A stretch of 64,000 bases of DNA, taken from Nitrospirales bacterium. Lineage in GTDB: Bacteria; Nitrospirota; Nitrospiria; Nitrospirales; UBA8639. The stretch is from assembly GCA_965223295.1 (NCBI GenBank), contig CBDCWC010000002.1, forward strand, positions 192,001-256,000, read 5' to 3'. Below, piece by piece: positions 14,563 through 52,523 of this stretch. The number at the start of each line of letters is the position of its first letter. Position 1 is the first letter of the stretch. The notes under the pieces were generated by a model, which made no database searches, was not told the origin of the DNA, and was given only the letters and a program-made list of their open reading frames with translations. A program made the translations under genes and the position numbers.

Positions 14563-14703
14563 GGGCACTTCTAAAAACTGTCCTTTTTCCCGATGGCGGC
14601 GTCAGCGTCATGCTCAAATCCTCATGTATTAGCCTATACACTCTGGTTTTCCGCGCGCCGCTTCCTTGCCCTAAGAAAAAATCATCAGTTTTTAGAGATG
14701 CCC
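14563..14703. mobile_element. MITE family B, copy 1
   Basis: TIRs GGGCACTTCTAAAAACTG / CAGTTTTTAGAGATGCCC; 4-bp TSD ACAT. Confidence 0.9.
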
Positions 14704-14708
14704 ACATG

Positions 14709-15311
14709 TTAGCGTTTGGCACGATCCGTCACGAACGTGACGATCTCCCCTACGTTGTCACCCGCATCCCAGACTTTTTGGAGAAATTCCACAGGATGAA
14801 TATTGACTGTCTTTAAAAATCGGCGGTCACCACCACAACTATACATCAGGTCTGGTGGGAGTTCTCCTCGAAGTTTGGCTCTGGCTTTTTCAATGATACG
14901 AGGAAACCATTGGAGCTTGGCGAGGGTCGCACTTCTTGATGGAAACTCATGTTCGCTTCGTTTGTTGTCTGAAAATTGTCCCTGTTGCTCGCTGTAAAAA
15001 TAGTCCCGGCGAATCTTCGTAATAGCCAGAGCCGTTTCCGGGTCAGGGACTCCATCCTCAACCCAGTCTTCCACAAAATCAAAAATCTCTTGAGAGGTGG
15101 CTCCAAGCGTACGGAGAAAACTTTCTTCTTCCATCGCAAACATGGCCTTGGGATTCCGCATGCCGTTTCTATAGTCGATGACTTTATTTGCAAACAGTGA
15201 TCGAAAGTGGTTACTCCAGTCATGAGATGCATCATTCATGGGAATAGAGTCGTTTTCTTTCAAGGTTCCATTTTGGCCGTCAGAAGCTGTTGATTGTACG
15301 AATGTTGCCAT
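14709..15311 (-). CDS. DUF5069-like protein
   Basis: WFPRIIEKARAKLRGELPPDLMYSCGGDRRFL; ATG at 15311 with AGGAG RBS. Confidence 0.7.
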   Translation of the reverse strand: MATFVQSTASDGQNGTLKENDSIPMNDASHDWSNHFRSLFANKVIDYRNGMRNPKAMFAMEEESFLRTLGATSQEIFDFVEDWVEDGVPDPETALAITKIRRDYFYSEQQGQFSDNKRSEHEFPSRSATLAKLQWFPRIIEKARAKLRGELPPDLMYSCGGDRRFLKTVNIHPVEFLQKVWDAGDNVGEIVTFVTDRAKR

Positions 15312-15334
15312 GTCTTTGTCTCCTTTTAGATCAT

Positions 15335-15525
15335 GGGGCTGTTGAATAATGATGATATCAATGGCCACATTTCATGTCTGAGGGGTAACATGTCAGAGAC
15401 CTCGGGTTTGTTCAAAAAAGTCCGTTCAGCAAGGCCGCAGCTATTTTTGGGTGCGGAGCATACTGGAAGTATGTGAGCACGGAAAAATAGCGAGAACGCC
15501 GCTGACGGATTTTTTCAAAAGACCC
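15335..15525 (+). mobile_element. MITE family A copy
   Basis: GGGGCTGTTGAATAAT...TTTTCAAAAGACCC; perfect 5-bp TSD ATCAT. Confidence 0.9.
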
Positions 15526-15546
15526 ATCATGTGTTCTTACAGATTG

Positions 15547-15915
15547 TCAGGGGTTGTGATAAAACCGTTCGTGAATAATCTTGCCATCCTGCCATTTGGC
15601 AACCACAACTTGTTCTACATGAACGGGGGTGTTATCTGTGGCGACCCAATCCATCACAGTTTCGTAGAATGTGACGTCTTGGCCGCTACCCTGGGAGATG
15701 ACCTGGAATCCTTTCCATTCTTTGATCATGGAGAGAAACTGTTTCTCACGCTCAATATTGGCGTCCCGTCCCGCGGTCGGTGGCTCCAAATTTTCCTGCA
15801 TGACCACATCTTCAGCATAAAACTCGTTCATGGCGTCGATGATGAGTCCTTCTCGAATGTAAGCAAGCAAGTTAGTTAACCGATCGTTCAGATTGACAGA
15901 TGTTGAAACACTCAT
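15547..15915 (-). CDS. SnoaL/NTF2-like protein
   Basis: FYAEDVVMQEN, KWQDGKIIHERFY. Confidence 0.85.
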   Translation of the reverse strand: MSVSTSVNLNDRLTNLLAYIREGLIIDAMNEFYAEDVVMQENLEPPTAGRDANIEREKQFLSMIKEWKGFQVISQGSGQDVTFYETVMDWVATDNTPVHVEQVVVAKWQDGKIIHERFYHNP

Positions 15916-15961
15916 GATAGCTCCTCCTTTGTTCGTTCAAGCATGAATAGTGTGGGTGTTC

Positions 15962-16495
15962 TCAGCTTGTAGCAATGGGCTGTTTGGCAAATTGAACATC
16001 CACTGGGGTTTGTGCAAGATGGTTAATGTAATTGGTGATAGTTTTGAGCCCGATATACGCAATGGTTTCATACAACTTTGGTTTGGTAATTCCCTTTGCT
16101 TCAAGGTGTTGCACCTCATTGGCTGACAACCACCCACGTTTGGTCATCAAGAGTCTGGTTGCTTCGACTACAGCTGTTAACGCTGAATTGCTTGGTGTCT
16201 TTCCTCCCCGGATCGCGGCGATATCTTCAGCAGAGATTCCTGTCATGCTGCTTATAGAACTGTGGGCAGCCTGACAATAGTGGCATTCATTAACTGAGGA
16301 CACCGTTAGTTGAACCGCCTGCTGTTCTGTGGGCGTCAAGGCCCCCTTGGCCAGTGCATCTTGCCCTTGCAGGTAAGTTTGTGCTGTAGGGATGCTGGCG
16401 CTCATTTCTTGAATAAGATTTGGCACGAACCCATACTTTTTTTTGACAATGTTGAAGAGTGCTTGAGCATCTGAGTCTGAGGATGTTGTGTTCAT
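15962..16495 (-). CDS. Carboxymuconolactone decarboxylase/AhpD-like peroxidase-related protein
   Basis: GFVPNL, VSSVNECHYCQAAH, TNYINH. Confidence 0.88.
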   Translation of the reverse strand: MNTTSSDSDAQALFNIVKKKYGFVPNLIQEMSASIPTAQTYLQGQDALAKGALTPTEQQAVQLTVSSVNECHYCQAAHSSISSMTGISAEDIAAIRGGKTPSNSALTAVVEATRLLMTKRGWLSANEVQHLEAKGITKPKLYETIAYIGLKTITNYINHLAQTPVDVQFAKQPIATS

Positions 16496-16588
16496 GTTAT
16501 GCCTCCTTTGGTTGAAAAAATAGTTGTTTGATTTTTGAGCACAGATCCCGGTTCCTAATTCCCTCATGTGAGATGGATAGAGCAATAA

Positions 16589-16608
16589 TTTGGAATGATC
16601 GTTCCAAA
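16589..16608. promoter_or_regulatory. Putative TetR operator
   Basis: Near-perfect palindrome TTTGGAATGATCGTTCCAAA; related site upstream of tetR. Confidence 0.7.
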
Positions 16609-16622
16609 AATAGTCAAAAAAA

Positions 16623-17204
16623 TTAGTCTAAGGTGGACAGGGTGGTTTTCATAATGTCTTGAAGCGTGTGCTTATCAGCGCCAGCTTTGGCCATGACTGC
16701 TGCTCCCTGTAAGAAACATGTGAATGTTCTGGCCATAGCTCGGATATCTTTGGCTTTGCCTAGCTCACCCTGTGCCTGTGCACGCTGCAATGTCACCCTG
16801 AATCGGTGTTCAACCCATTTCAAAGCTTTTGCGACCCGTCGGTTGGCTTCATCGTCATGGGGACTCAGTTCCATGACAGAATTTGTGACCAGGCATCCTT
16901 TTTTGGCAGCCTCTGTCCCTGCCAGTTTTACAATTTGTCCAAAAAAAGTTTTAATTGCCTCGCAAGCCGACCCTGGCTGATCTAATACTTTTAATCGATC
17001 ATGCATGATCTGGCTGCAATATCGCTCTAAGGCCGCCGAATACAGTTGGTGTTTGTCGCCAAATGTTTCATACAAGCTTCCTCGATTGATACCCATATGC
17101 TTCACAAGATCTTCAATCGAAGTGGCTTCATAGCCTTGCTGCCAAAACACATCCATTGCTTTTTCTAATGTTTCTTCGGGTATAAATTCTTTGGGCCGTG
17201 CCAT
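16623..17204 (-). CDS. TetR/AcrR family regulator (NemR/ComR-like)
   Basis: MARPKEF...FWQQGYEATSIEDLV...GSLYETFGDK, GCLVTNS. Confidence 0.92.
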   Translation of the reverse strand: MARPKEFIPEETLEKAMDVFWQQGYEATSIEDLVKHMGINRGSLYETFGDKHQLYSAALERYCSQIMHDRLKVLDQPGSACEAIKTFFGQIVKLAGTEAAKKGCLVTNSVMELSPHDDEANRRVAKALKWVEHRFRVTLQRAQAQGELGKAKDIRAMARTFTCFLQGAAVMAKAGADKHTLQDIMKTTLSTLD

Positions 17205-17241
17205 GCAGTTTCTCCGTATCACTAGATGACATATCACATTC

Positions 17242-17257
17242 TGGAATGATCAGTCAA
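17242..17257. promoter_or_regulatory. Putative TetR autoregulatory operator
   Basis: TGGAATGATCAGTCAA, similar to the 16589 site; overlaps a minus-strand TTGACT hexamer. Confidence 0.6.
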
Positions 17258-17608
17258 TAATTTAATTGTGATCGATAACAGTTCTGAACCAGAATAGTGA
17301 GATCAGACAATATATCTTGCTTCTACGAAAAAACCGGAAGAAAATTACCTGTTATTTGAAGTATATTTGTTGCCGGAAATGACATGGCGAATGGCGCTAA
17401 TGTCGTAACCGATCCTATGCTGTTATTGACAGTTTGGCTCTTTCAGAAAGCAGGTGATTTCTCAACTTCTTTATAGGCTCTGACGTATTTATGTTGGAGA
17501 AAATAGGGTGAAGACTTATTGACACTTAACACTTTTTACGTGCTAGCATGATGAGAATAAACTCTGAGTGACACTTCACTTATTGAACATGTTGAATGGA
17601 GGACTTTG

Positions 17609-17965
17609 ATGGGTGTTTTTCAAAAAAAATCTGCGAAACTCGTGGCGATTGTTGTGATGATAGTTTTGCTCGGCGCGTGTTCATTTTCTACTCGAATAAA
17701 TACGGAACCTGAAGGTGCGGATGTCTACATCAACAATATTTATGTTGGGAAAACCCCTACTCTCTACAAGTACAGATCTGGCTTTCCTGAAACCACATAC
17801 TTGGAAGTGAAAAAACCTGGGTATACAGAAATTCGCAATGGGACGATCGAAAAAACTTATCGAGCTGACATTCAACTCTTATGGTTAATCCCCGGTATCA
17901 TTCCCTATTTCGTTGGGACTGCCCGCTATGAAGATGACTATGTGTTTCATTTGAAAAAGCGCTAA
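17609..17965 (+). CDS. PEGA-domain lipoprotein
   Basis: Lipobox LGAC; INTEPEGADVYIN..VGKTP. Confidence 0.8.
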   Translation: MGVFQKKSAKLVAIVVMIVLLGACSFSTRINTEPEGADVYINNIYVGKTPTLYKYRSGFPETTYLEVKKPGYTEIRNGTIEKTYRADIQLLWLIPGIIPYFVGTARYEDDYVFHLKKR

Positions 17966-18328
17966 AGCTTGAAGCGTTTTTTTCGCTGATGAATATATTG
18001 ACCATTATATGAAAGAATGAATAATAACCTTTTGTCCAAAAATTTTTAGTAGTAATTATCAGTTTCAGTATGTTTTTGCCAGTCTACTTGTCTATGTTGC
18101 TAGCTGTGTCTTCTCTAAGCTCAAGTTCTGATCATCTCTCAACTTTTGCCAGAGTTCGCAACCCCTTTTCTCATAAAAACCTCTTCCCAACTTCCCACGT
18201 AGTTGTTTCTATCCGTTCAAAAGATGGTTTCTAGTTTTGTGTTGTCTGCAATTCGGTAAGAAGATTGACAGAGCCATATATATGGAGCTGTAGTAGTATT
18301 TTAGAAGGATATCGAGGGAGCTTTAATC

Positions 18329-18583
18329 ATGGCCGCTGACGAAATTGGTGAAGCGTTTCTTCGTGTAGTTTTTCGATATGTCGTGTATTTTTTTGTAGAA
18401 ATACTATGGGAGCTAATCTGTTATTACATAGGCTTTCCGGTTGTACGGTTGGTTACTCTTGGAAAATATCCACAGGATCAGCCCACCATGGCTCAAGAAA
18501 TTATTGCCTCCACAGTTGGTTTCCTTCTTTTACTGTTTGGAATGATGTGGCTAATTGGCTTTTTGGCATTAAGGAACGCTTGA
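18329..18583 (+). CDS. Small hypothetical membrane protein
   Basis: Hydrophobic 84-aa ORF with RLVTLGKYP motif and a GAGGGAG RBS. Confidence 0.6.
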   Translation: MAADEIGEAFLRVVFRYVVYFFVEILWELICYYIGFPVVRLVTLGKYPQDQPTMAQEIIASTVGFLLLLFGMMWLIGFLALRNA

Positions 18584-18915
18584 GGCGACTACCGGTGTAA
18601 GTCAGTGCCTCAACAAAAGTGGATTATGAAGGAAGTGTGAACTCAGAAGACGAATGCAAAAAAAATTCAATATCCAGTACAACCCATCCTCTGCTTCTAA
18701 GTATTGCACTGACTATCTATCTGAGAAAAAAGTTATCTAGGTTATCCTCACTAGTTCTCTTTCTGTGTCCTCTTGTTGAGATCTCTCCAAAGCTACCCTA
18801 AGTTTTAGAATCAACCACATATCCTGCCCTCCTTGAATGAAAAGGCAATTTTCACAATTTTTCCCTTAAATTTAAGATCCCGGTACATTTCCCAGCTTGA
18901 GAAATGACAAGGGTA

Positions 18916-19599
18916 CTAAGAAAGGGAGAGTAAATGATGGCCCGTCAATCCTAGGTAGGCCTCTTCGATCGTGGTGACGGGAGACACGTGCATAAGAAAT
19001 GGAGTGCGCCAATCATCTTCACGTGGATCATACTCACCTGGAATCAACACACGTTGGAAATGTTGATTATACGCTGCCAATATCTTCAGTTGGAGTCCCC
19101 CCACTGCCCCTATGGATCCCTGGTCGGTGATCGTTCCGGTCAACGCTCGACCCTCTAATAACGGGTCTCCCTTGGCCATAGCCACGACGCTCAGGGCCAC
19201 CATAGCCGATAAACTTTCTCCATATATGGTCAGACCGGCATAAGGGAGTTGTAACTGGACGGTCCACGAATCTGAAGGGAGATTGGCCAATTGAAAAGTT
19301 CGTTTGATAGCTTGTTGGATAGTTTTTTGGGCAAACAAGGAGAATTGTCCCGGTTGGAGATGAAATTGAATTTGCAGACCGTTGCGATCTTGGCGTTCCC
19401 ATAAATCAATTAAAATCTGGCATACTAACCCCACGGGGTGATATTGCTCACTAACAGACGTGCCTAGGATTGGGACACTGAGATGAGAAATCCTATTCGT
19501 GGTCGAACCCGCAGCGACTCCATTCACACATACCAGCATGAGGAGTAAAACGTACCCTACCATTGTCAGTCGCTGGCCCCAGTCAATTGGATTCTTCAT
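18916..19599 (-). CDS. Stand-alone Lon protease (S16) proteolytic domain with signal peptide
   Basis: YGESLSAM, ALTGTI..GSIGAVGGLQLKILAA. Confidence 0.8.
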   Translation of the reverse strand: MKNPIDWGQRLTMVGYVLLLMLVCVNGVAAGSTTNRISHLSVPILGTSVSEQYHPVGLVCQILIDLWERQDRNGLQIQFHLQPGQFSLFAQKTIQQAIKRTFQLANLPSDSWTVQLQLPYAGLTIYGESLSAMVALSVVAMAKGDPLLEGRALTGTITDQGSIGAVGGLQLKILAAYNQHFQRVLIPGEYDPREDDWRTPFLMHVSPVTTIEEAYLGLTGHHLLSLS

Positions 19600-19940
19600 C
19601 CGAAAACCTTCCTTGGCTTGTTAGGGGATTTTTCTTCATTAGTTTTTGTTGCATAAATTGTTCCTTCTACTTTTCTTAGCTCTTATTCTTCCTCATCCAC
19701 ACAAAAGACAGAAAAAATACGATTTTTCAACAGTTTTCTCGATGCCCCCTGCCTACCGCATTCCATCTTATTTTTAGAAAGTTGAAATTTCTTCAGTTCA
19801 CTTTCCTTTCTCTGGTTGTCAGATTTGACAACCAGGGGTGCAGTGGCCAACTTGAAATATATTTCGTTCGGGATGAAAGATGGCGGCGATTGAATCCGGA
19901 AAAGTCGATTTGCGAGTCAACCCTTCAGCGGATCTATTAG

Positions 19941-20208
19941 CTGAGTGTTGAATAATGAAGATATCAAAAGCCATACTTCGCCATGGAGCTCTTGGCGTTC
20001 AACGACGTTGGGGTCTGTTCAAAAAAGCTCGCTCGCCTGCGCGAAGCTGCTTCGGCGAAGCCAGGTCCAGCAAGGCCACAGCCATTTTTGGCCGCGGAGC
20101 GTACTGGTCCTACGTGAGCATGGGAAAATGGGGAGCACGCCGCTCCCGGCCTTCGTAGCCTATCGAGTTACTTCGGTGGAGTAGTCGGCGACTTTTTTCA
20201 ACAGGCCC
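19941..20208 (+). mobile_element. MITE family A copy with two nested REP-like hairpin insertions
   Basis: Family A ends and core plus inserts CTCGCCTGCGCGAAGCTGCTTCGGCGAAGCCAG and CCCGGCCTTCGTAGCCTATCGAGTTACTTCGGTGGAGTAGTC. Confidence 0.88.
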
Positions 20209-20536
20209 ACCAGGGCCCTTGCTGTCATTTTAGTCTGGAACTCGGACTCTCAAAAATCACGTGAAGAGATATTTCGTGTCCGTGCTCCAGTCATCGCACT
20301 GAAACGATTGAAAAAGATGATGAGGACGATGGCACTCGAAGACCAGGCGGTAGGTAGAGAAATTTTCGAGAGGCTTCTTGAAAAACGAACCAATCAAATT
20401 CTCCATAATCTTCGCGAAAAAAATATAGCGCTAAGATCCTGTTACTTGGAGATGTCTACGAGTTTCAAGTCGATTGTATTATGATTTTTCTTGCTATAGT
20501 GTCACGTGTATTACAATATAATACTTGGAGGAAATC

Positions 20537-20795
20537 ATAGTAGTTCTTAGGCTGAGGTTAGATGATCAATGAGAGAAGAAACTTAAGGGCACCTCTAAAA
20601 ACTGTCCTTTTTCCCGATGGCGGCGTCAGCGGCGTGCTCAAATCCTCATGTATTGGCCCATACACTGCGGTTTTCCGCCCGCCGCTTCCTTGCCCTCAGA
20701 AAAACCTTCAGTTTTTAGAGGTGCCCTTAAGCGACTTTCTAGGAAAACGGAACGTCCCAAGAACTTATTTTTTGAAGAAAGCGCTAGGTGTTTAA
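20537..20795 (+). pseudogene. Ribbon-helix-helix antitoxin remnant interrupted by MITE-B
   Basis: Removing the MITE gives IVVLRLRLDDQ*EKKLKRLSRKTERPK/TYFLKKAL after a GGAGG RBS; has a stop and a frameshift. Confidence 0.6.
20587..20726. mobile_element. MITE family B, copy 2
   Basis: Perfect 18-bp TIR GGGCACCTCTAAAAACTG; TSD TTAA. Confidence 0.92.
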
Positions 20796-21091
20796 AGTTT
20801 ATTTCAGAAAATCTGTGGAGAAAAAATCTTAAGGCATTATCCAAAGCTGACCCCCAAAAGTTGTTAGACCAAATTGGAAAGGTGCTCGCAAAAGATCCCT
20901 GCTCGGGAAAAGTGCTAGGCGAAGAATTCAAAGGATTATACTGTTGGAGAACCGGTCGATTCCGTGTGATTTATGAAATTCAAAAAGATGTGTTTGTTCT
21001 CCTTCTCCTAAAAATTAGTCATCGAAAAGACACCTACCGATGTATAGTTGATGAGAATGTTTCGACTCAAAAAGAGCATTTATTTGCCTAG
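20788..21091 (+). pseudogene. relE: RelE/ParE-family toxin, frameshifted in the A-run near 20821-20826
   Basis: GTG-FKVYFRKSVEK, shift, then NLKALSK...GLYCWRTGRFRVIYEI...KISHRKDTYR. Confidence 0.75.
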
Positions 21092-21101
21092 AATGGATTG
21101 A

Positions 21102-21440
21102 TTGAATAACGAATCCCCACCAGCAAAGACTCGCGAAACTCAGCCTAAACGATCGTCTTATGGACATTGGCATGAGAACATTCGTTTGATGGCCGTGCTC
21201 CTCTTGATCTGGTTTGTGGTTTCTTATCTGCTTGGCATTGTCTTTGTTGAGCCGTTGAACCAATTTCATTTTGGTGGTTTCCCTCTAGGCTTTTGGTTTG
21301 CTCAACAGGGATCGATCTTTGTTTTTATCGTCTTGACACTTGTCTATGCATTAGGGATGGATCGAATCGATCGGCGTTACGGTGTCAACGATGGGCCTGC
21401 TCCGAGTTGTTCCAAAAGTTCTTCGGAGACGCCTGAGTGA
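21102..21440 (+). CDS. DUF4212 small subunit of solute:sodium symporter
   Basis: GFPLGFWFAQQGSI; overlaps the symporter start. Confidence 0.9.
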   Translation: MNNESPPAKTRETQPKRSSYGHWHENIRLMAVLLLIWFVVSYLLGIVFVEPLNQFHFGGFPLGFWFAQQGSIFVFIVLTLVYALGMDRIDRRYGVNDGPAPSCSKSSSETPE

Positions 21441-24522: not shown

Positions 24523-24713
24523 GGGCCTGTTGAAAAAAGCCGCCATTGGCGTTCTCGCCATTGTTCCGTGCTCACTTACTGTCAGTACGCTCCCCGCGCT
24601 AAAACGGCTGTGGCCTTGCTGGGCGGACTTTTTTGAACCGACCCGACGTTGTTGATCGCCAAGGGCCTCCTGGCGAAATATGGCCCTTGATATCTTCATT
24701 ATTCAACACTCCC
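24523..24713 (-). mobile_element. MITE family A copy
   Basis: Full-length reverse copy; perfect TSD CATCT. Confidence 0.92.
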
Positions 24714-25330: not shown

Positions 25331-25342
25331 CTTTGGCGTAAT

Positions 25343-25535
25343 CAGAGTGTTAACACGTTCAAGAAGGAGAGACTCGGCCAAGTTTCGTTTCTGCGACGTC
25401 ACAGGTCAGAGGCCGCGGGTCTGTTCAAAAAAGTCCGCTCTCCTGCGCGAAGCCATTTCAGCCTTCGTAGCCACTGCGGCGAAGGAGGCCCGGCGAAGGC
25501 AGGGTACGCCGCTGGCGACTTTTCTTAACAGACTC
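25343..25535 (+). mobile_element. MITE family A, degenerate copy; core replaced by nested REP-like hairpins
   Basis: Inner TIR GGGTCTGTTCAAAAAAG at 25417 and right end TTAACAGACTC. Confidence 0.7.
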
Positions 25536-26597: not shown

Positions 26598-26788
26598 GAG
26601 AGTGTTGAATAGTGAAGATATCAAAGGCCATATTTCGCCAGGAGGCCCTTGGCGATCAACAACGTCGGGTCGGTTCAAAAAAGTCCGTCCAGCAAGGCCG
26701 CAGCCTTTTTTGCGCGCGGAGCATACTGGCATTATGTGAGCACGGAACAATCGCGAGAACACCGCTGGCGGGTTTTTTCAACAGACTC
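26598..26788 (+). mobile_element. MITE family A copy
   Basis: Full-length; flanks AGTTT/AGTTG (4/5 match). Confidence 0.9.
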
Positions 26789-30920: not shown

Positions 30921-31111
30921 GGGAGTGTTGAATCATGAAGATATCAAAAGCCATGCTTCGCCATGGAGCCCTTGGCGATCAACAACCTCGGGTCTGTTCA
31001 AAAAAGTCCGTCCAGCAAGGCCGCAGCCCTTTTTGCGCGCGGAGCGTCCTGGCACGACGTGAGCACGGAACAATGGCGAGAACGCTGCTGGTGGCTTTTT
31101 TCAACTGACCC
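30921..31111 (+). mobile_element. MITE family A copy
   Basis: Full-length; perfect TSD ATGAT. Confidence 0.92.
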
Positions 31112-33081: not shown

Positions 33082-33202
33082 GGAGCTGTTTAATAATTCA
33101 ATTTCACGTTACGAAAAGGCCTTGCTGGGACTCGACGCTGTTGATCGTCAAGAACTTCCTGGCGAAATATGGCTGTTGATGTCTTCATTATTCAGTACTC
33201 CC
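33082..33202 (-). mobile_element. MITE family A, internally deleted copy
   Basis: Clear similarity over 33118-33202 (GGCCTTGCTGG...GGCGAAATATGGC...TTCATTATTCAGTACTCCC). Confidence 0.7.
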
Positions 33203-33271
33203 ATAGGGACAAGATATCCCAAATTCAAAAATTGCTAAAAACTAGGTCCTGTCGCCATAATACCTATCCTC

Positions 33272-35587: not shown

Positions 35588-35617
35588 GCACCACTCTATC
35601 CCGCAAAAATTCAATAA

Positions 35618-35757
35618 GGGCACCTCTAAAAACTGTCCTTTTTCCCGATGGCGGCGTCAGCGGCGTGCTCAAATCCTCCTGTATTTCCATATACACCGCG
35701 GTTTTCCGCGCGCCGCTTCCTTGCCTCAGAAAAAATCATCAGTTTTTAGAGGTTCCC
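35618..35757. mobile_element. MITE family B, copy 3
   Basis: Same TIRs (one mismatch); flanks ATAA/GTAA. Confidence 0.88.
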
Positions 35758-35770
35758 GTAAGTTTGTGCC

Positions 35771-36709: not shown

Positions 36710-36899
36710 GGGTCTGTTGAAAAAAGCCGCCAGCGGCGTTCTCGCCCTTTTCCCGTGCTCACGTACTGCCCGTACGCTCCGCGCGCAACAATGGCTGTGG
36801 CCTTGCTGGACGACATTTTTGAACAGTCCCGACACTGTTGATCGCCACAGGTTTCCGGGCGAAATATGGCCCTTGATCACTTCATTATTCAACACTCCA
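36710..36899 (-). mobile_element. MITE family A copy
   Basis: Full-length reverse copy; no TSD visible; ends 3 bp before the ATG at 36903. Confidence 0.88.
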
Positions 36900-37905: not shown

Positions 37906-38046
37906 GGGCACCTCTAAAAACGGTCCTTTTTCCCGACGGCGGCGTCAGCGGCATGCTCAAATCCTCATGTATTTCCATCTACACTGAGGTTTTCCGCGCG
38001 CCGCTTCCTTGCCCTCAGAAAAAATCATCAGTTTTTAGAGGTGCCC
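37906..38046. mobile_element. MITE family B, copy 4
   Basis: TIRs; TSD TTCT. Confidence 0.92.
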
Positions 38047-38064
38047 TTCTGTGAAATCAATGTT

Positions 38065-38238
38065 TGGGCTGTTGAAAAAAGCCGCTGCTTATTCCGCCGA
38101 AGTTACTCGATAAGCTACGAAGGCTGAAAGCGGATTCGTGCAGGCGAGCGGACTTTTTGGAGTCGCCCCGAGGCTGATGGTAGCCGATGTTATCTTAAGG
38201 AAACTTATTTATGGTGTATTATGTTATTCACCACTCCC
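38065..38238 (-). mobile_element. MITE family A, core-deleted copy with nested REP-like hairpins
   Basis: Both ends present; perfect TSD ATGTT. Confidence 0.82.
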
Positions 38239-45183: not shown

Positions 45184-45268
45184 GCTGCGAGCGACTTTCC
45201 TGTCAATGAGGTTCTGGTGGTGACTAGTTAGTTGGTCAGACTAGACAAATATATTAGAACTCTTTCTC

Positions 45269-45496
45269 ATGAAAATCGTTAATGTCTATGAAGCGAAGAC
45301 TCGCCTATCGCAACTTCTGGACTTAGCGGCCTCAGGGGAAAAAGTTGTCATTATCCGTGCCGGTAGGTCAATGGCCAAACTTATTCGTTCCCAAGTATCA
45401 CCCAAATCGGGAAAGCCTGGCTGCTCGAAGGGAAAAGTCAAAATTTCTAAAGATTTTGATCAACTTCCTGAAAATTTTTCTCGAGGCTCGATTTAA
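45269..45496 (+). CDS. Phd/YefM family antitoxin
   Basis: VNVYEAKTRLSQLL..A.SGEKVVI.RAG; GKVKISKDFD. Confidence 0.85.
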   Translation: MKIVNVYEAKTRLSQLLDLAASGEKVVIIRAGRSMAKLIRSQVSPKSGKPGCSKGKVKISKDFDQLPENFSRGSI

Positions 45497-45508
45497 AGAA
45501 GAGGCCGG

Positions 45509-45943
45509 GTGACATTTTTGTTCGATACTCATGTCTTGCTATTAATGGTGGCTATGACTTGTGGCGCTTGTGCTGTAACTCAGAAAGAGCTCAGCGAGGA
45601 GTTGAGTTTTCCTCCTCTTGAGTTGATTGAGCGTAATATTCACCAAACGGATATAACGTTTGTCCTGGCAATAAGAGATGTGCACCGTATTGAAACAATT
45701 GGTTCCTACTCGAGCTGGGAAATCACTGCGAAAGTTCGAAATTCCTTGAAAGGCCATCTTGTTGAAGGAACAACCATTCAATACGATCGAACCATTGAAG
45801 GGAGTTCGCTTGCGCTTCCCATAGGAAGTCTTCATCTCGTCAGTTTTGTCTGGAAAGAAGAACGGTTTGTTATTCCGGACAGCGGGTATCACTTCCCGTA
45901 CTCTCAAAAATTGAGGAGACAGCTTGAGGCGAAATTTCCATAA
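45509..45943 (+). CDS. Chimeric ORF: VapC/PIN N-terminal stub fused to a lipoprotein-like domain
   Basis: Starts FLFDTHVLL (PIN LLDTHxLL motif) directly after phd, then MTCGAC and unrelated sequence. Confidence 0.55.
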   Translation: MTFLFDTHVLLLMVAMTCGACAVTQKELSEELSFPPLELIERNIHQTDITFVLAIRDVHRIETIGSYSSWEITAKVRNSLKGHLVEGTTIQYDRTIEGSSLALPIGSLHLVSFVWKEERFVIPDSGYHFPYSQKLRRQLEAKFP

Positions 45944-46005
45944 TCACTACCAGTGGCTTTGGATAGGTTAGCATTTTCATAAAAATAGTAGCGCAGATCC
46001 GAAGA

Positions 46006-46237
46006 GAGTGGGTTGAATGCGACGACACATCAGAGGTAAATTTTCCCATGATGACGTCAGTTGCCAAGAGTCTCGGGGGCTGTTCAAAAAAATCATCCAG
46101 CAAGGCCACAGCCATTTTTGTGAGCGGAGCGTACTGCCTGTACGTGAGTACCGAAAAAGGCGAGAGCGCTGCTCACGGTCTTTGTAGACTATCGAGTTAC
46201 TTCGGCGGAGTAGGCGGTGGCTTTTTTCAACAGGCCC
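46006..46237 (+). mobile_element. MITE family A copy with nested REP-like insertion
   Basis: Degenerate left arm, intact core and right end; flanks GAAGA/TAAGA. Confidence 0.85.
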
Positions 46238-46256
46238 TAAGAGATAAATTGGTTTA

Positions 46257-46721
46257 ATGGAGAACATACAATGGTCCGTTTTTACCTTTTCGGATTTCTC
46301 TCCGGAGCAACTATATGCGGTGCTGAAGTTGCGCGTGGATGTGTTTGTTGTGGAGCAACAATGCGCGTATCCAGAATTAGATGAATATGATCGGCATCCT
46401 GAGGCCAGGCATCTTTCGGGGCGAAATGATGTTGGGGAATTGCTTGCTTATGCACGCCTTCTTCCACCTGGACTTCGCTATCAGGAAGTAAATCTTGGGC
46501 GAGTTGTGGTGAGAGCGGATTTTCGTAAGCAGGGAGTTGGGCATCAACTGTTACAGAACGCACTAGAAGAGATCTCTGGTTGTTGGCGCAAGACGCCTGT
46601 GAAAATTTCTGCTCAGGAGTATCTTCAGAAATTATATGAACAGTATGGGTTTGTTCGTGTTTCTGATGTATTTTTAGAAGATGGGATTCCTCATGTTGAG
46701 ATGCTGAGGGAATCTGAATAA
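46257..46721 (+). CDS. elaA: ElaA-like GNAT acetyltransferase
   Basis: LRVDVFVVEQQCAYPELD, GRVVV, ISAQEYL, LEDGIPHVEM. Confidence 0.9.
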   Translation: MENIQWSVFTFSDFSPEQLYAVLKLRVDVFVVEQQCAYPELDEYDRHPEARHLSGRNDVGELLAYARLLPPGLRYQEVNLGRVVVRADFRKQGVGHQLLQNALEEISGCWRKTPVKISAQEYLQKLYEQYGFVRVSDVFLEDGIPHVEMLRESE

Positions 46722-46736
46722 ATACTGTTATAGTTT

Positions 46737-46763
46737 GTCATACCCGCGGAGGCGGGTATCCAG
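46737..46763. repeat. REP-like palindrome
   Basis: GTCATACCCGCGGAGGCGGGTATCCAG: GTCA tetranucleotide followed by a hairpin. Confidence 0.65.
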
Positions 46764-46852
46764 AAAACGATAGAGAAGGTTCATTGCCTGTTTTTTCGGA
46801 AAGGATACGCATGGTTTTCATCTGAAAGTTTATTGCTGTTTTCACGACTCTA

Positions 46853-46885
46853 CCCCACCTTAGTCCTCCCCTTACAAAGGGGAGA
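46853..46885. repeat. REP-like element of CCCC..CCTCCCC-loop-GGGGAG type (family D)
   Basis: CCCCACCTTAGTCCTCCCCTTACAAAGGGGAGA; relatives at 60449 and 61222. Confidence 0.6.
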
Positions 46886-46911
46886 AACTTGAATCAAAAT
46901 ACTTTAAACTG

Positions 46912-48060
46912 ATGAATAATTTATCTCTTGGTAAATTTTCGATTGAAACATTTTTGGCTGAGTATTGGCAGAAGAAGCCGTTGTTGATTCGGCAGGCGTT
47001 GCCTGGGATTCAGCCGGTAATTGCGGCTGACGAACTAGCCGGTCTTGCTTGTGAGGAGGAAGTCGAGTCACGGCTGATTATTCAGAATGCCGAGACTGAT
47101 GAGTGGACATTGACTCATGGGCCATTTGTGGAGGCCAATTTTTCTGAGTTGCCTAAAACTCATTGGACCCTACTAGTCCAGGCCGTCGATCATTGGGTGC
47201 CCGTTGCTGCGGATTTTCTTGCACAGTTTTATTTTATCCCCAGTTGGCGGGTCGATGACCTGATGGTCAGCTATTCTGGGGACAAAGGCGGCGTCGGGCC
47301 GCATTATGATAATTATGATGTCTTTTTGGTGCAGGTGAGCGGACGGCGGCAATGGGAAGTGGGCGGACTGTATGACGAAACCTCACCTTGTCGGCCTGAT
47401 GTGCCTCTGAAGATTTTGACTGAATGGGAGCGTCAAGAGTCTTGGGTGTTGGAGCCGGGTGACATGCTCTATGTGCCTCCCCGTGCCGGGCATAGTGGAG
47501 TTGCGGTGGGAGAGAATTGTATGACCTACTCAGTGGGATTCCGCGCCCCGTCTCACCGGGATCTTTTGCTCGATTTTCCTGAATATGTTGGGGAACAGCT
47601 CAGCGAAGATGTGCGCTATGCGGATCCTGACTTGGTTCCTCACGACAATCCCGGACACATGACTCCTGATGCCGTCACAAAAGTTCAGAGGATCTTATCT
47701 CACTACGTTGATGATTTTGAAAATGTCGCTCAATGGTTTGGCCGATATATGACAGCTCCGAAATATGCTGAGGATGATACACCTCAGGAGGAGTTGAGTT
47801 TAGAAGATGTTCGTGGACACGTAGCAACCGGAGGGATGCTGATTCGAAATGAAGGTTCCCGGTTTGCGTTTCAGGAGTATGGGACGAATGTGTGGTTGTT
47901 TGTTGAAGGCCGACAATATACCTGTCATGAATCAATGACTGGCTTTGTCAAGGCCTTATGCGCCGAACGAACATTCTCTGATGTTCTTGGCCGGTCGAAA
48001 GAACAAGATTCGTTAATTCTTGATTTGTTAAATCATGGCAGTCTTTATCTTTCTGACTGA
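46912..48060 (+). CDS. roxA: JmjC/cupin ribosomal protein uL16 3-hydroxylase (RoxA/YcfD)
   Basis: YWQKKPLLIR, WTLLVQAVD, GVGPHYDNYDVFL, YSVGFRAP. Confidence 0.9.
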   Translation: MNNLSLGKFSIETFLAEYWQKKPLLIRQALPGIQPVIAADELAGLACEEEVESRLIIQNAETDEWTLTHGPFVEANFSELPKTHWTLLVQAVDHWVPVAADFLAQFYFIPSWRVDDLMVSYSGDKGGVGPHYDNYDVFLVQVSGRRQWEVGGLYDETSPCRPDVPLKILTEWERQESWVLEPGDMLYVPPRAGHSGVAVGENCMTYSVGFRAPSHRDLLLDFPEYVGEQLSEDVRYADPDLVPHDNPGHMTPDAVTKVQRILSHYVDDFENVAQWFGRYMTAPKYAEDDTPQEELSLEDVRGHVATGGMLIRNEGSRFAFQEYGTNVWLFVEGRQYTCHESMTGFVKALCAERTFSDVLGRSKEQDSLILDLLNHGSLYLSD

Positions 48061-48069
48061 AAGCGCGTT

Positions 48070-48504
48070 CTAAAGTGGGATTTTTCGAGGTTGAGACAGG
48101 TCCTCATACGAGAGGATACGTCGATGGCCGACTTCATCAAGCTGGATCACCATTTCAATAGATGTCCCTTTTTCTATCGTTTCCAACTTTTTATATTGTT
48201 CGGGATCCAGCGGATAGACCAATAGCGTCGTCCCATCAGGCACCAATTTCCAACCAGTATTGAATAACGGACGATCATCTGACCGTTGTTCCTAATTGAG
48301 CCAGATATTCTGTTCGCCCTTGTCGATGTATCGGACAGTGCCTCGTATGCCGGTTGGTTCACGAAAATTCAGAATGTCGGTTAGAAATGTGTCCAGAGGG
48401 TGCGGTTCTGGCTCGAGAGCGGTTGCCGGGATAGAAGGTAGTAGGAGTCCCGGAAGACTGATATATATCAAAAATTGCAGGTAAGAGAATTTCCGACTTC
48501 TCAT
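48070..48504 (-). pseudogene. Secreted hypothetical protein with an internal amber (TAG) codon at 48292-48294
   Basis: Frame stays open 73 codons past the TAG: ...NIWLN*EQRSDDRPLFNTGWKL...QPRKIPL. Confidence 0.65.
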
Positions 48505-48523
48505 AGGGTGCGTTTTTCCTTGC

Positions 48524-49276
48524 TTATAATTGAGTCGCACCACCATCTACGGTCAGGTCAATTCCTGTAATATACGTTGAATCATCTGAACCTAGAAACA
48601 ATACGGCTTTGGCAATTTCTTCTGGTGTTCCCATTCGTTTCATGGGGTTTTGATTTGCAAAGCTGTCTTTCATTTCGGGAACGGCTTCTGCCGGCATCCC
48701 AATTTTGTCAAAGATGGGGGTTTCGATGGGACCCGGAGCAATGGCATTCACGCGTATTTTTTTCTCGAGAAGCTCGGTCGAAAGGGTTCTGGCCAAACTT
48801 CGAACAGCAGCTTTCGTGGCGGCATAAATATTGGTACTGGGAAACCCTTTCTGGTCAGCAATCGAAGAATTGAGGACGATGGAACTTCCTTCATTCATGA
48901 GCGGCACGGCTTTTTGAATATTAAAAAATAGGCCTTTGAAGTTCACATTCACCATGGTATCGAATGTAGCCTCGTCGATAGTGTCATAGGGACCAAAGAT
49001 CGCAATGCCAGCGTTGAGGAATAGTATATCGATCTTAAATCCTGACTGCTGAATTTTTTCATAAAGCTGAACAATGTCCTGAAGATTTCCCGTGTCCGAG
49101 ACGATTCCCTTGCAGGTTCCTCTGATTTCTTTAACTGCGGCATCTACGGCCTCTTGCCGTCTTCCCGTAATAATCACCCTTGCCCCTTCGGCCTGAAGCA
49201 ATTTAGCGGTGGCTAATCCAATTCCGCTATTCCCGCCAGTAATGACAGCGATTTTTTCTTTGAGTTTTAACGACAT
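48524..49276 (-). CDS. SDR family oxidoreductase
   Basis: TGGNSGIG, NAG, YAATKAA, NAIAPGPI, DGG. Confidence 0.93.
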   Translation of the reverse strand: MSLKLKEKIAVITGGNSGIGLATAKLLQAEGARVIITGRRQEAVDAAVKEIRGTCKGIVSDTGNLQDIVQLYEKIQQSGFKIDILFLNAGIAIFGPYDTIDEATFDTMVNVNFKGLFFNIQKAVPLMNEGSSIVLNSSIADQKGFPSTNIYAATKAAVRSLARTLSTELLEKKIRVNAIAPGPIETPIFDKIGMPAEAVPEMKDSFANQNPMKRMGTPEEIAKAVLFLGSDDSTYITGIDLTVDGGATQL

Positions 49277-49354
49277 CAATTCTTTCCTTTCACATGATAA
49301 AGAAGCCTTAAAAGACCTAGTGTCATAGCAAATACGGTTGCCGAGGTGCAATTA

Positions 49355-50290
49355 TCATAGGTCCCACTCATCTTCTTGCCATCGTTTCTTAATAGCTGAA
49401 GTCCTTCTTCGCTGTTTCGTATAGGCCCATAAGGCCAGCAGTGTGATCGTGAGCCACACCACGCTAGGACTCGTCGCGACCGGGACCCACCGATTCCAGA
49501 TTGTCTGTCGACTCCAAAAACGTTCTTCGGCCTGTGTGAGGGACATAGCAGTCGTTTGGGCAAAGGCTTCAGAAAAGGACAATCCTAGTCTGACCTTTGC
49601 CAGAATACGTTTGGGGACTTGCTGGTGAGTGCGTTCCAAAAGATCTAGAATAAAGGCATAGGCCAAGACATAAGCGTACCGGACTGACGTATCGTCTTTA
49701 ATAAAGAGCTGATTCAATTCCGCCAGCGAAACCTGTGTGCCGGAGACCATAGCCCATATTAATCTTGCTCGATCTTCAAAATCCCATGTTCGGGCGGCCA
49801 GCATTGCCAATCCTTCGTCAAACCATCGGGGGAGTGGTTGGCCGCCTGCTGCCCGGTAGGCCAGGATATGTCCGACTTCATGCAAAAATACCTGGTTGAG
49901 TGAATCATTCGGATAACTCAAACTTCGGTCCGTAAGAAGGACGATAGTCGATGCATGACTTAGCGCGTAGCCGGACATCCAATCTGCCGCTTCCTGGGCT
50001 GCGGGAGAGTTGTCTGGCGTCAGAATGACTCGAATGGCAGGCCCAGGATGTTTGAGACCCATAAGACTCATCATTCTCTCAAATGTGAAAGGATTAGTTC
50101 TCCCTAAGCGAGCCGCTATTGGTTGTAATGCGTCTGATGCTTCAAAGATAAATTCTAGAGAGGGGGCTCCAAGGAGGATCCGAGGAAATATGGGCATTAA
50201 GATGATTGTGAACAGCCCTATCTGCAATAGACGATACGTTGTTAGGCCATACCATCCGTAACCATTCAATTGTTTGTGACAACAACCCAT
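49355..50290 (-). CDS. Peptidase MA-like zinc metallopeptidase domain protein
   Basis: HEVGH, PRWFDEGLA; C-terminal TM; true start uncertain. Confidence 0.8.
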   Translation of the reverse strand: MGCCHKQLNGYGWYGLTTYRLLQIGLFTIILMPIFPRILLGAPSLEFIFEASDALQPIAARLGRTNPFTFERMMSLMGLKHPGPAIRVILTPDNSPAAQEAADWMSGYALSHASTIVLLTDRSLSYPNDSLNQVFLHEVGHILAYRAAGGQPLPRWFDEGLAMLAARTWDFEDRARLIWAMVSGTQVSLAELNQLFIKDDTSVRYAYVLAYAFILDLLERTHQQVPKRILAKVRLGLSFSEAFAQTTAMSLTQAEERFWSRQTIWNRWVPVATSPSVVWLTITLLALWAYTKQRRRTSAIKKRWQEDEWDL

Positions 50291-50378
50291 CCGTTTGTCT
50301 AGCAGAGTGATTTCATTGAGACCATTAGAAACATCATATTTCTGAACAACTCAGGTTGAGCAAGCGAAGGTGTGGAAG

Positions 50379-50569
50379 GGGACCGTTGAGTAATGAAGAT
50401 ATCAAAAGCCATATTTCGCTATGAAGCCCTTGGCGATCAACAACCTCGGGTCTGTTCAAAAAAGTTCGTCCAGCAAGGCCACAGCTATTTTTGCGCGCGG
50501 AGCGTCCTGGCACGACGTGAGCACGGAAAAATGGCGAGAACGCGGCTGGCGGCTTTTTTCAACAGACCC
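50379..50569 (+). mobile_element. MITE family A copy
   Basis: Full-length; perfect TSD GGAAG. Confidence 0.93.
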
Positions 50570-50597
50570 GGAAGTACGAAAATGAGGCAGAGACGGC

Positions 50598-52232
50598 TCA
50601 AAAGCTGCCAGCTTGGACGACATCGTCGAGATTGTTGATATCCAACCAGTGGCCGACAGTATAGAGGACGCGAATAGGCTGATGTTGTCTTAGTAACTCC
50701 TGAAACAAAGTTGCCATGCCGGCTTTCTGGTTCTCTGGCGCACTTAAGAGTCTAGGAAGCAGTTCTTGTAACTGTATGGTTCCCGATGCTGAAACCTTGA
50801 GAAAGCCCATCCAGACGCCATGGATATTATCAGGGTGGATGTGGGTACCGAGTTGCTTGAGGTGAATAGGAGTCTTGAATGCTTTGCGGGAATTGGGCGC
50901 GGTGCATTCAGCAAATCCTCCTAGACGGGTATAGCTAGTTTTTTCTTGCCAGTTGCTATCGACAAAAATGACGAAGTCGCCTTTAGCTTGCAAGAGTGCT
51001 TGTGGAATATATGAGTTAAACAATACATCGCCATAGGAGACGATGAGGTCTTGTGTGTGACATGTCTTGGCTTCGAGTGCCTTCAACAGGGAATCGAGTT
51101 CGCCTGTTGACGAAAAATCATCATTATCCACATAGGTTAAATGAGGCAGATTGACGGCTTCTTTTTTATATCCACGAACGACACAGATATCTTTTATCCC
51201 AACCGTATTATACGCATCCATAATGTGTCCCAGAATGGGGACTCCTCGAATGGGCACCATGGTTTTAGGTTTATCGTTCGTTAGTTCGCCCAACTCATCT
51301 CCACGGGAAGCGGCCAACACAATTGCAGAAGCACGCTCTGTACCCTTAGGAAGATAGCGTTGTTCGGCTTCTTGTAGATCTGCGGCGCCTTGCAAGCGAA
51401 AGACTTCGGCGACGGGAACGATCTTGTCTTCCACCGAGAGCAGGTTTTCCTGTTCTCGAAGAATACGGGCAGTGGATTGCATGGTCGCAATTGCCGCACG
51501 GAGGAGATGATTCGCCCAAATCACCATTGAGATGTTTTGCTGTCGAAAGACATCCATCGGTGTGGAGTAATATTTGGTTGGTACAATCACCACCGGGCAA
51601 CGGTCAGCCCATTCCCGTTTGAAGGCCAGTATCTCATCAGGTATGGTCAATGCACTATGTATCAAGATTCCGTCGGCTCCTGCTTGATGATAGGCTTCTG
51701 CCCGACGAATGGCTTCGGCTAGTCCCCAACCACAAATAAATGCTTCGATGCGCGCAATGAGACAGAAATCCGTGTCCGACTGCGCATCTTTTCCGGCTTT
51801 AATCTTTCCACAGAATTCTTCCATGTTGGCAAGAGGTTGTGCCTCGCCTTGAAGAAAGCTATTGGTTTTGGGAAATAACTTATCTTCAATGCAGACGGCT
51901 GCAATGTCCCGCTGCTCTAATTTCCGGATGAGACGCTGCATATTGTTGAAGTTGCCATAGCCGGTATCACCATCAAGTAAGATAGGAATACAAGTTGCGT
52001 CGGACATAAATTCCAGATTGTCCAAGACCTGGGTCCAGCTGGCTTCGTTGTTGTCCCGTACCCCAAACTGTGCAGAAATAGACAACCCGCTTGCCCAAAT
52101 CCCTTCAAATCCGGCCTCTTCCACAATTTTGGCACTGAGACCGTTGTGGGCTTCGCAAAGAAACTCGAGTTGTGGGGACAAAAGGAGTTGTTTGAATTGC
52201 TTAGACTTTGATGGTTGTCGTTCGCTTGGCAT
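50598..52232 (-). CDS. pepM: Phosphoenolpyruvate mutase fused to a C-terminal nucleotidyl(cytidylyl)transferase domain
   Basis: PepM signature [10 protein letters not shown] (EDKx5NS), [19 protein letters not shown]...PKTM NTP-transferase motif. Confidence 0.93.
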
Positions 52233-52331
52233 AAGTTAGAGAAGCAGAGTAAGCGTCAGATCGTGAGAAAACGTGCACAAGTCTACAGCAAGGCGAATCT
52301 TGCTGCCAAATTCTTTCACCGGATGAGAAAA

Positions 52332-52523
52332 TGGAGTGTTGAATAATGAAGATATCAAAGGCCATATTTCGCCAGGAAGCCCTTGGCGATCAACAACGTC
52401 GGGTCGGTTCCAAAAAGTCCATCCAGCAAGGCCGTAGTCATTTTTGCGCGCGGAGCGTACTGGCATTATGTGAGCACGGAATAAATGGCGAGAAGTCCGC
52501 TGGCGGGTTTTTTCAACAGACCC
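52332..52523 (+). mobile_element. MITE family A copy
   Basis: Full-length; perfect TSD GAAAA. Confidence 0.93.

Follow-up and report, generated by a model that had tools for sequence, protein, structure and literature searches.

Enterobacterial repetitive intergenic consensus (ERIC) elements are placed in Enterobacteriaceae and Vibrionaceae by reviews and surveys (PMC10969869, PMC3184786, PMC2267715, PMC2759123); the reviews consider them peculiar to enteric bacteria and vibrios and agree on no function. In Yersinia transcripts ERIC exposes an RNase E site, as stated in PMC3184786 and PMC10969869. The present analysis concerns two families of miniature transposable elements with inverted repeats (MITEs), here called A and B, which occur in a 64,000-nucleotide stretch of the genome of a Nitrospirales bacterium (GenBank assembly GCA_965223295.1, contig CBDCWC010000002.1, positions 192,001 to 256,000 of the forward strand; this whole stretch is hereafter the window, and its own numbering is used for all window positions) and whose interiors share a hairpin core with ERIC.

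Other described systems are close to A and B in some respects and differ in others. Correia/NEMIS repeats are also MITE hairpins that are co-transcribed and cut by ribonucleases, RNase III in the case of Correia and RNase E in that of ERIC; however, in the excerpts of PMC10969869 and PMC3184786 their effects are ascribed to pairing of terminal inverted repeats (TIRs) or to AU-rich sites, not to a tip conserved across phyla. Repetitive extragenic palindromic (REP) elements and REPINs, which bear GTAG or CGTC tags and are moved by RAYT, are hairpin repeats in which a short tag is common to many phyla while the stems vary (PMC3733652, in part). Families A and B bear the signatures of DDE-type elements, namely TIRs and target duplications, and their conserved part is the tip of the hairpin instead of a 5' tag. 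In a 2024 census 97.4% of prokaryotic MITEs were specific within genus boundaries (PMC11602168); a shared core of 22 nt would probably escape clustering of whole elements.

The interiors of A and B are diverged versions of one hairpin core, and the two families were moved by different transposases, as seen from their 5-bp and 4-bp target duplications, respectively, and from the IS5-family TIRs of B. The core belongs to a superfamily that comprises E. coli ERIC, a second E. coli repeat family named here Ec2, and hairpin repeats on contigs of Alphaproteobacteria, Bacillota, Nitrospirota, Myxococcota, Syntrophales and Opitutia. It is probable that A and B are MITEs of different transposases carrying one diverged core of this ERIC/Ec2 superfamily, which has been kept by selection on the folded strand; the shared core suggests a conserved mobile structural module.

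The source genome measures 3.78 Mb in three contigs, with about 47% G+C, and family loci were counted over its whole length by repeat finding and iterated nhmmer. Both families fit the description of a MITE, being short, present in many copies and devoid of a transposase gene: A has 282 distinct loci, 211 of them with the full inner unit, and B has 49, of which 45 are near-full; ten A matches and four B matches fall in the window. The inner unit of A is 121 nt long (GGGTCTGTTCAAAAAAG ... CTTTTTTCAACAGACCC), the element ends being GGGWSTGTT, and in nearly all copies of this genome a module of about 70 nt, opening with the outer TIR GGGWSTGTTGAATAATGA, stands before it, so that the mobile unit is about 190 nt; a length of 190-199 nt was found for 112 of the 137 measured elements. 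Family B is about 147 nt long, with ends GGGCACCTCTAAAAACTG / GGGCACCTCT that match an IS5-family element. Within the genus of the source genome A is present in 24/24 genomes and B in 13/24; in the rest of the order A occurs more weakly in other families, while B is confined to this genus. The A element had no match in the plasmid collection. Positions 200-300 kb of the contig are a hot spot for A: these 100 kb hold 18 copies, of which 15 lie on the plus strand, compared with about 7 in an equal length elsewhere. In one B copy outside the window the right arm GCCGCTAACGCCGCC replaces GCCGCTTCCTTGCCC, mirroring the left arm, as if one arm were copied from the other.

A preliminary description of the window had claimed that the two families, with their different ends, share one ordered core, read on the plus strand of A and on the reverse strand of B. 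The claim is confirmed by the ends and duplications detailed below and by the ranking given by a covariance model, R1, built from 60 A cores only (83 positions, 26 pairs) and run on the window with filters off. Nine A cores headed the R1 ranking at 73-104 bits. The B copies came directly after them: each of the four was aligned full length, on the minus strand, with 14.2-18.9 bits (E 0.02-0.37 for 128 kb, these values being rough). As controls, the reverse strand of A gave 8.5 bits and the forward strand of B was not listed. In the R1 alignment of the two families GCAAGG, the apex and ACGCCGC are matched in order; a profile hidden Markov model of A does not reach B, and the likeness in plain alignment is weak. 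The elements of the window are the following.

14563..14708, minus strand: family B, flanked by ACAT; core on the minus strand 14591-14673; R1 18.4 bits, E 0.032.
15335..15525, plus strand: family A, 191 nt (left module and inner hairpin unit), ATCAT on both sides; core 15425-15507, plus strand, apex GCATAC/GTATGT; R1 101.7 bits.
19941..20208, plus strand: family A, long variant with extra small hairpin modules, left end degenerate; core 20066-20148; R1 78.4 bits.
20586..20732, minus strand: family B, flanked by TTAA; core on the minus strand 20615-20697; R1 18.9 bits; resembles E. coli Ec2.
24523..24713, minus strand: family A, flanked by CATCT; core 24541-24623; R1 75.6 bits.
26598..26788, plus strand: family A; core 26688-26770; R1 94.9 bits.
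30921..31111, plus strand: family A, flanked by ATGAT; core 31011-31093, apex GCGTC/GACGT; R1 104.3 bits.
35617..35762, minus strand: family B; core on the minus strand 35646-35728; R1 15.5 bits.
36710..36899, minus strand: family A; core 36728-36810, apex GCGTAC/GTACGT; R1 103 bits.
37906..38052, minus strand: family B, flanked by TTCT; core on the minus strand 37934-38016; R1 14.2 bits.
46006..46237, plus strand: family A, long variant, left end not placed by pattern; core 46096-46177; R1 73.2 bits.
50379..50569, plus strand: family A, flanked by GGAAG; core 50469-50551; R1 103.8 bits.
52332..52523, plus strand: family A; core 52422-52505; R1 87.3 bits.
25376..25535, plus strand: A-type inner and right TIR around another interior without an ERIC-like core; only a partial R1 match of 10 bits.
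33115..33217, minus strand: family A fragment, left module only.
38065..38238, minus strand: A-type TIRs around another interior without an ERIC-like core; no R1 match; 12 nt downstream of the B copy ending at 38052.

The element at 25376..25535, where A-type TIRs enclose another interior, indicates that ends and cores combine as modules. The small hairpin modules of this element and of that at 38065-38238 recur as inserts in the A variants 19941-20208 and 46006-46237, and are also found in the Nitrospirales loci L094, L106 and L134.

The A consensus folds as one long hairpin (-62.8 kcal/mol), whose apex, shared with the other families, reads G-N-GC-G-GA-GCRUAC, a loop of 4-8 nt, and GUAYGU-GA-GC-A-C. 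The tip starts at its base with a short helix, on which a 1x1 N.A loop and a 2-bp helix follow; next come a single bulged G and a tandem G.A/A.G, above which a 6-bp stem, GCRUAC/GUAYGU, is closed by a G.U pair and capped by the free loop, whose length varies even inside single genomes. The B tip keeps this architecture (A.A 1x1 loop, 2-bp helix, bulged G, G.U closure) and changes G.A/A.G to C.A/A.G and two C-G pairs to U-A. In a canonical kink-turn the G.A pairs are preceded by a bulge of 3 nt. The tip has in common with kink-turns and K-loops a tandem of sheared-type G.A/A.G beside a non-Watson-Crick G.U at the foot of the stem; however, the fold at this point is a 3x2 internal loop, that is, one bulged G plus the tandem G.A, and in ERIC the bulge is absent, so that the kink-turn-like geometry with a bulge of about 3 nt, previously proposed, fails. 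In many families GCAAGG-like and AACGC-like outer boxes lie 24 nt upstream and about 15 nt downstream of the tip, respectively, as detected by patterns that were defined after inspecting the data. Families represented by L105, L091, L093, L124, L104 and their relatives, from various phyla, carry non-complementary boxes at fixed distances beside the apex (ATGCAAGGCG on the left, TGACAACGCnGCAGAT or CTGACAAAGC on the right), which looks like a conserved internal loop.

Compensating double changes span the entire A hairpin, TIRs included. They were scored in 222 rows, corresponding to 211 distinct loci with 11 second-strand or overlapping matches retained, and the same set underlies the wobble, substitution, private/shared, apex-versus-arm and fold-energy figures for A that are given below, as well as its pair counts: TA 117, GC 22 and AT 20 at pair 4/119; CG 142, UG 41 and UA 24 at 23/102; GC 157 and AU 16 at 57/69; AU 142 and CG 18 at 59/67. 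In the 60 diverse A cores 90.0% of the cells are paired, compared with 87.7 +/- 0.3% after shuffling and 31-42% in slid controls, and 44 cells show double changes against 16.6 +/- 3.5, with 0/500 shuffles as high, although related sequences may beat such shuffles without any structure. The apical variants listed in the preliminary description are all present, namely GCATAC/GTATGT (unit at 15404), GCGTAC/GTACGT (36710, 46006), GCGTC/GACGT (30921, 50379) and GTGTAT/ATACAT (family B); their compensatory character stands inside A, at pairs 57/69 and 59/67, but not inside B, where the stem GUGUAU/AUACAU is constant (42-44 of 45 rows).

The ends of the two families point to distinct mobilities. Both ends of A could be placed in 137 of the 211 loci (the right end was unplaced in 46 and the outer left end in 28), and here a 5-bp target duplication is perfect in 77 and has one mismatch in 26, whereas shifting the left flank by 7 nt gives no perfect and six one-mismatch cases. 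For B the duplication is of 4 bp, perfect in 29/43 and with one mismatch in 9/43, against no perfect case in the control. IS5-group elements make 4-bp duplications, and B combines such duplications with IS5-type TIRs, as expected of an IS5-derived MITE. Indeed, a congeneric genome has a 470-bp element bounded by B-type TIRs (L078, 1504-1969, flanks TTAA and TAAA), the interior of which is the N-terminal remnant of a transposase, the whole being an internally deleted IS5-family element. Pfam assigned no family to the 100-aa remnant; among 35 longer relatives PF05598 and/or PF01609 is found in 34, and seven bear the name IS5 family transposase, including one from a Nitrospirales bacterium. Beyond about 20 nt the ends of B and of the 470-bp element are unlike, so B represents IS5-type TIRs around a foreign interior. 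The earlier proposal of different transposase systems is supported by these duplications and by the B-type TIRs around the IS5-family remnant, and ERIC itself has TIRs with TA flanks (PMC3184786, in part).

Some candidates related to the ends and to the content of the elements were rejected. Three candidate pairs of A-type TIRs lying 0.9-1.4 kb apart in the source genome are two MITEs flanking ordinary genes and not insertion sequences (IS). A scan for a sigma-70 promoter inside the left module of A found none within the element at two copies, and a small conserved open reading frame (ORF), running ATG..TGA across the apex, keeps its frame in no more than some of the families, as judged by eye.

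The apex pattern GGAGCNTAC-N3-8-GTANGTGA has 18 matches in E. coli K-12 and none in the reversed control, which upholds the view that the core has the same apex as ERIC; the free pair is complementary in 18/18 of them (11 T:A and 7 G:C, the latter being the family A version). In the source genome the same pattern has 33 matches and its 5-bp-stem form 115, with 0 in both reversed controls. Both ERIC primers match the E. coli loci L209, L211 and L214 exactly, back to back at the apex, and these loci are on this ground identified as ERIC. Five of the G:C copies form Ec2, a second K-12 repeat family of about 150 nt with other arms (L200, L203, L204, L205 and L212, near 192.7, 2543.7, 2689.6, 2746.4 and 1007.7 kb, respectively). 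Ec2 may be the repeat listed as RSA in old E. coli annotations; one Ec2 copy and one ERIC copy were looked up in the RefSeq record of E. coli, and neither is annotated there with a repeat feature.

R1, although built from A cores only, scores both B and the E. coli repeats, as the preliminary description had anticipated. On the 18 pattern-chosen loci 8 reach E<0.01, with a best score of 29.4 bits; ERIC and Ec2 loci obtain 17-29 bits. When the whole K-12 chromosome was searched without the pattern, three matches were returned (E 0.004, 0.006 and 0.03), which are two Ec2 copies and one ERIC-like repeat. The B reverse strand resembles Ec2 significantly: Smith-Waterman scores are 32-34 over about 50 nt, compared with 16 +/- 2.2 for dinucleotide shuffles (0/500 as high, z 7.3-8.0), and the B forward strand gives no signal. 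The common stretch of about 50 nt reads GCGGA(G)AAACCG.AG.GTA .. TAC.TGAGGATTT(C)GAGCAC.GCC, and the architecture is identical, with A.A 1x1 loop, 2-bp helix, bulged G and tandem mismatch; the ends differ, and B has C.A for the first G.A and U-A for two C-G pairs.

ERIC has in common with A the apex GGAGC-N-TAC, loop, GTA-N'-GTGA with its G.U closure and flanking GA/GA, of which B has a diverged form with the architecture retained, as well as the long imperfect palindrome of similar size; a GCAAGG-like box is found at 11/13 of its loci and an AACGC-like one at 10/13, against about 0.1 in shuffled flanks. It differs in the arms, which are not alignable, and A carries the extra 70-nt left module; in the TIRs, which have TA flanks (PMC3184786, in part), compared with the 5-bp and 4-bp duplications of A and B; and in the hosts, which are Enterobacteriaceae and Vibrionaceae according to an excerpt of PMC10969869, while those of A and B are in other phyla. 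Smith-Waterman comparison of A or B with ERIC loci gives p 0.03-1.0, with no overall homology to the 127-bp consensus.

The distribution of the apex is much wider than that of either family. A scan of one genome per species with GCGGAGCRTMC-N7-KAYGTGAGCAC found the exact 22-nt apex in at least 118 stretches, with about 1 expected by chance (by our own arithmetic, which is not a control), and 80 of these were examined. Their titles include Nitrospira and Nitrospirales metagenome-assembled genomes, Mesorhizobium, Brucella/Ochrobactrum, Devosia, Pelagibacterium, Desulforudis, Paenibacillus, other Bacillota, Polyangia, Syntrophales, Opitutia and Rickettsiales. Grouping of these 80 stretches by flanking sequence gives 18 clusters, namely an alpha-type one (37 stretches), a Desulforudis-type one (12), family A (9), a second Nitrospirae family (5), a Paenibacillus cluster (3), one pair and 12 singletons. 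Thus at least 18 clusters of hairpin repeats, on contigs of Nitrospirota, Alphaproteobacteria, Bacillota, Myxococcota, Syntrophales and Opitutia, carry the apex, in line with the earlier claim of a spread across phyla. Only six loci, on contigs titled Nitrospira, Nitrospiraceae, Nitrospirales or Nitrospirota, reach 73-90 bits with R1, and they represent family A outside its own genus. By eye, A-like TIRs occur in Desulforudis (GGGGCTGTTCAAAAA) and Syntrophales (CAGGCTGTTCAAAAA), and the alpha family has the TIR GGTGTGTTGAGATTC.

The elements are multi-copy in other genomes, since five of these have 14, 12, 4, 3 and 2 pattern matches against 0 in the control. Of 401 Pseudomonadota genomes, drawn evenly, 62 contain the pattern, up to 47 times per genome, and 4 have a control match; in the phylum of the Desulforudis genome the figures are 5/121 genomes, the centre included, against 1. 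The free N/N' pair is complementary in 147 of the 150 matches listed, and G:C, U:A, A:U and C:G all occur. Assembly contamination is an unlikely source of the non-enteric matches, because isolates and complete genomes are among them. Twenty viral or proviral IMG/VR contigs (L218-L237) also carry the exact 22-nt apex.

No Rfam family was found that already explains the core: with Rfam 15 only the c-di-GMP-I-GGC riboswitch matches in the window, and 20 cross-phylum loci gave, at E<=1, five weak and unrelated matches far below the gathering scores. The riboswitch aptamer lies at 8237-8313, plus strand (72.5 bits, gathering score 59), just upstream of tandem repeats of about 300 bp at 8704-9870, which are probably a repetitive surface-protein gene controlled by c-di-GMP. 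A literature search that did not extend to the primary ERIC papers, so that an earlier description is possible, found no link of ERIC with repeats of organisms other than Gammaproteobacteria and no apex printed as a motif, with one exception: in a Thalassospira small-RNA study, a table lists a read from two loci that holds the complement of the apex (PMC6413936, Table 5).

The fold is maintained across families. RNAalifold on 28 representatives, excluding A, B and E. coli, recovers the fold of the tip together with covarying lower pairs. In a cross-family alignment of 41 rows (3 A, 2 B, 7 ERIC, 4 Ec2 and 25 others) 91.9% of the cells are paired, against 74.1 +/- 1.2% after shuffling and 17-46% in slid controls, and 80 cells show double changes against 26.2 +/- 4.2 (0/500 shuffles as high). 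Three apical pairs never vary and three compensate, as do 6/6 lower pairs, and the G.U pair is present in 41/41 rows; the apex columns of the cross-phylum rows are fixed by construction, because these rows were picked by the apex pattern, a choice that fixes neither the lower helix nor the rows of A, B and E. coli. The covariation that had been predicted for the core is therefore found both in A and across families.

The hairpin also has a polarity. Single changes in A keep a G.T wobble in 461 cases and break the pair as A.C in 253, with this direction in 29 pairs against 12, and the bias is seen in private changes (231 vs 156) and in shared ones (230 vs 97). A>G changes exceed T>C at paired sites (8.8 vs 4.7 per site) and not at unpaired ones (13.0 vs 15.3), while C>T exceeds G>A at paired and unpaired sites alike. 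When fold energies of the GGAGC...GUGA strand and of its complement are compared with RNA parameters, the former folds better in 132 A copies against 89, in 41/45 B copies, in 13/13 ERIC and 3/5 Ec2 loci, and in 71/77 cross-phylum loci (mean -59.7 vs -50.7 kcal/mol). This asymmetry, together with the free loop of variable length, also backs the single-strand form proposed in the preliminary description. Fixed non-complementary pairs and a common folding polarity point to one folded strand.

Several observations weigh against a common, selected core. In plain alignment the core consensus of A and that of B give p 0.008-0.07 (plus vs reverse), compared with 0.12-0.73 in the other orientation, and local alignment of A with ERIC is not significant (p 0.05-0.8); the 14-19 bits of B under R1 would fail in a blind whole-genome search. 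ERIC has neither the bulged G nor the 1x1 loop below the tandem G.A, and the outer boxes, besides their definition from the data, are missing from Ec2 (0/5) and from most of the alpha cluster. Selection by pattern fixed the apex of the exact-apex loci beforehand, and what remains informative in them is their flanks, the free N/N' pair and the excess of matches over controls. Members of one family share descent, for which reason cell counts and binomial p-values overstate the case. Conservation of the apex inside A does not exceed that of the arms (0.93 vs 0.89-0.94; loop 0.78). Orientation gives no bias: relative to flanking ORFs, from crude calls, A is sense to the downstream one in 135 cases vs 118, with 85 vs 71 in tandem contexts; the 13 E. 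coli ERIC loci show no sense bias ((+,+) 1 vs (-,-) 4); and with respect to the GC-skew strand, where a lagging-strand role of single-stranded DNA would be expected to appear, A shows no leading/lagging bias (150 vs 129). Finally, no autonomous IS with A-type TIRs was found in the source genome, nor in one complete Desulforudis genome with similar TIRs.

The lack of orientation bias and the equal decay of apex and arms argue against a simple role in host transcripts. The same observations fit selection on multiplying lineages, which would make the tip a signal for the element itself. In the mechanism that we favour, selection would act on the folded single strand carrying GGAGC...GUGA, and on lineages that multiply rather than on each resident copy, while ends and arms would be exchanged or evolve through compensating changes; the tip would serve every such element as a necessary signal, irrespective of the transposase involved, the simplest form of it being a site where a conserved host factor binds or processing takes place. 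As to the form of the strand, RNA may be involved, a serious possibility though short of an even chance, considering that ERIC reportedly forms a fold in transcripts, with an RNase E site exposed, and that a Thalassospira read holds the apex complement. A role as single-stranded DNA or cruciform in mobilisation or replication is conceivable and tentatively held, and it is rather unlikely that neither form applies or that there is no function. Mimicry of the sarcin-ricin loop of 23S rRNA was considered and rejected: it is the best match of alpha-type elements to an E. coli rRNA operon (14/16), no better than shuffles (p 0.2).

The explanation that best survives beside selection is inheritance by geometry without function, in which the centre of a palindrome outlasts erosion or the capture of new TIRs, and one successful core, recently spread by horizontal transfer, has been re-coated, so that the apex would be shared for being central and young. 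The A-type TIRs with other interiors, the IS5-type TIRs of B around a foreign core, the nested and abutting insertions, the decay of the apex in step with the arms inside A and the absence of orientation bias are all compatible with it. Nevertheless it appears improbable, as point changes in the apex are compensated, with all four Watson-Crick types at one pair; B has two swaps of C-G to U-A with G.U and A.G fixed; the non-complementary G.A/G.A and G.U, taken as invariant in 41/41 rows, are not predicted by neutral drift of a palindrome; and the folding polarity is consistent over at least 18 clusters.

A site in double-stranded DNA, namely an operator or a recombination core with two arms of about 11 bp around a spacer, to which a tyrosine recombinase or a dimeric protein would bind, would account for the order of outer divergent and inner palindromic 5 bp, spacer and mirror image, which resembles that of dif-type sites. 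This is very improbable: spaced dimer sites do not accept a change of spacer length, but here the length ranges from 4 to 8 nt even inside one genome or one family, and such variation rules out a spaced duplex site; moreover, the arms run on as a long hairpin with compensating changes, and the folding is strand-polar. That A, B and ERIC are unrelated GC-rich palindromes with a motif coincident by eye is hardly credible, for although plain A-B and A-ERIC alignments are marginal or not significant and a hairpin model gives some score to any hairpin, the A reverse strand, of the same hairpin shape, obtains 8.5 bits against 14-19 for B and up to about 29.5 for the E. coli repeats, controls with the reversed pattern give almost no matches and B vs Ec2 has z 7.3-8.0.

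ERIC repeats have reportedly been used as typing targets for thirty years. If the same tip and the same non-Watson-Crick pairs sit in distant phyla under different transposases, the tip itself is the conserved unit, and the purpose of ERIC becomes testable, the motif being small, well defined, present in E. coli K-12 and predictive of a specific partner. A bolder proposal, speculative and somewhat unlikely at present, is that the ERIC apex may be a pan-bacterial, sequence-specific hairpin ligand of a universal host machine, repeatedly captured as cargo by unrelated transposons; with the same reserve, candidate machines would be RNA polymerase, a ribonuclease, the ribosome, or replication and repair factors acting on folded single strands. 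If this were true, the cargo would let short palindromic elements multiply or be tolerated, and it would represent a new class of mobile functional nucleic-acid motif, ranging from E. coli to Nitrospirota and Bacillota.

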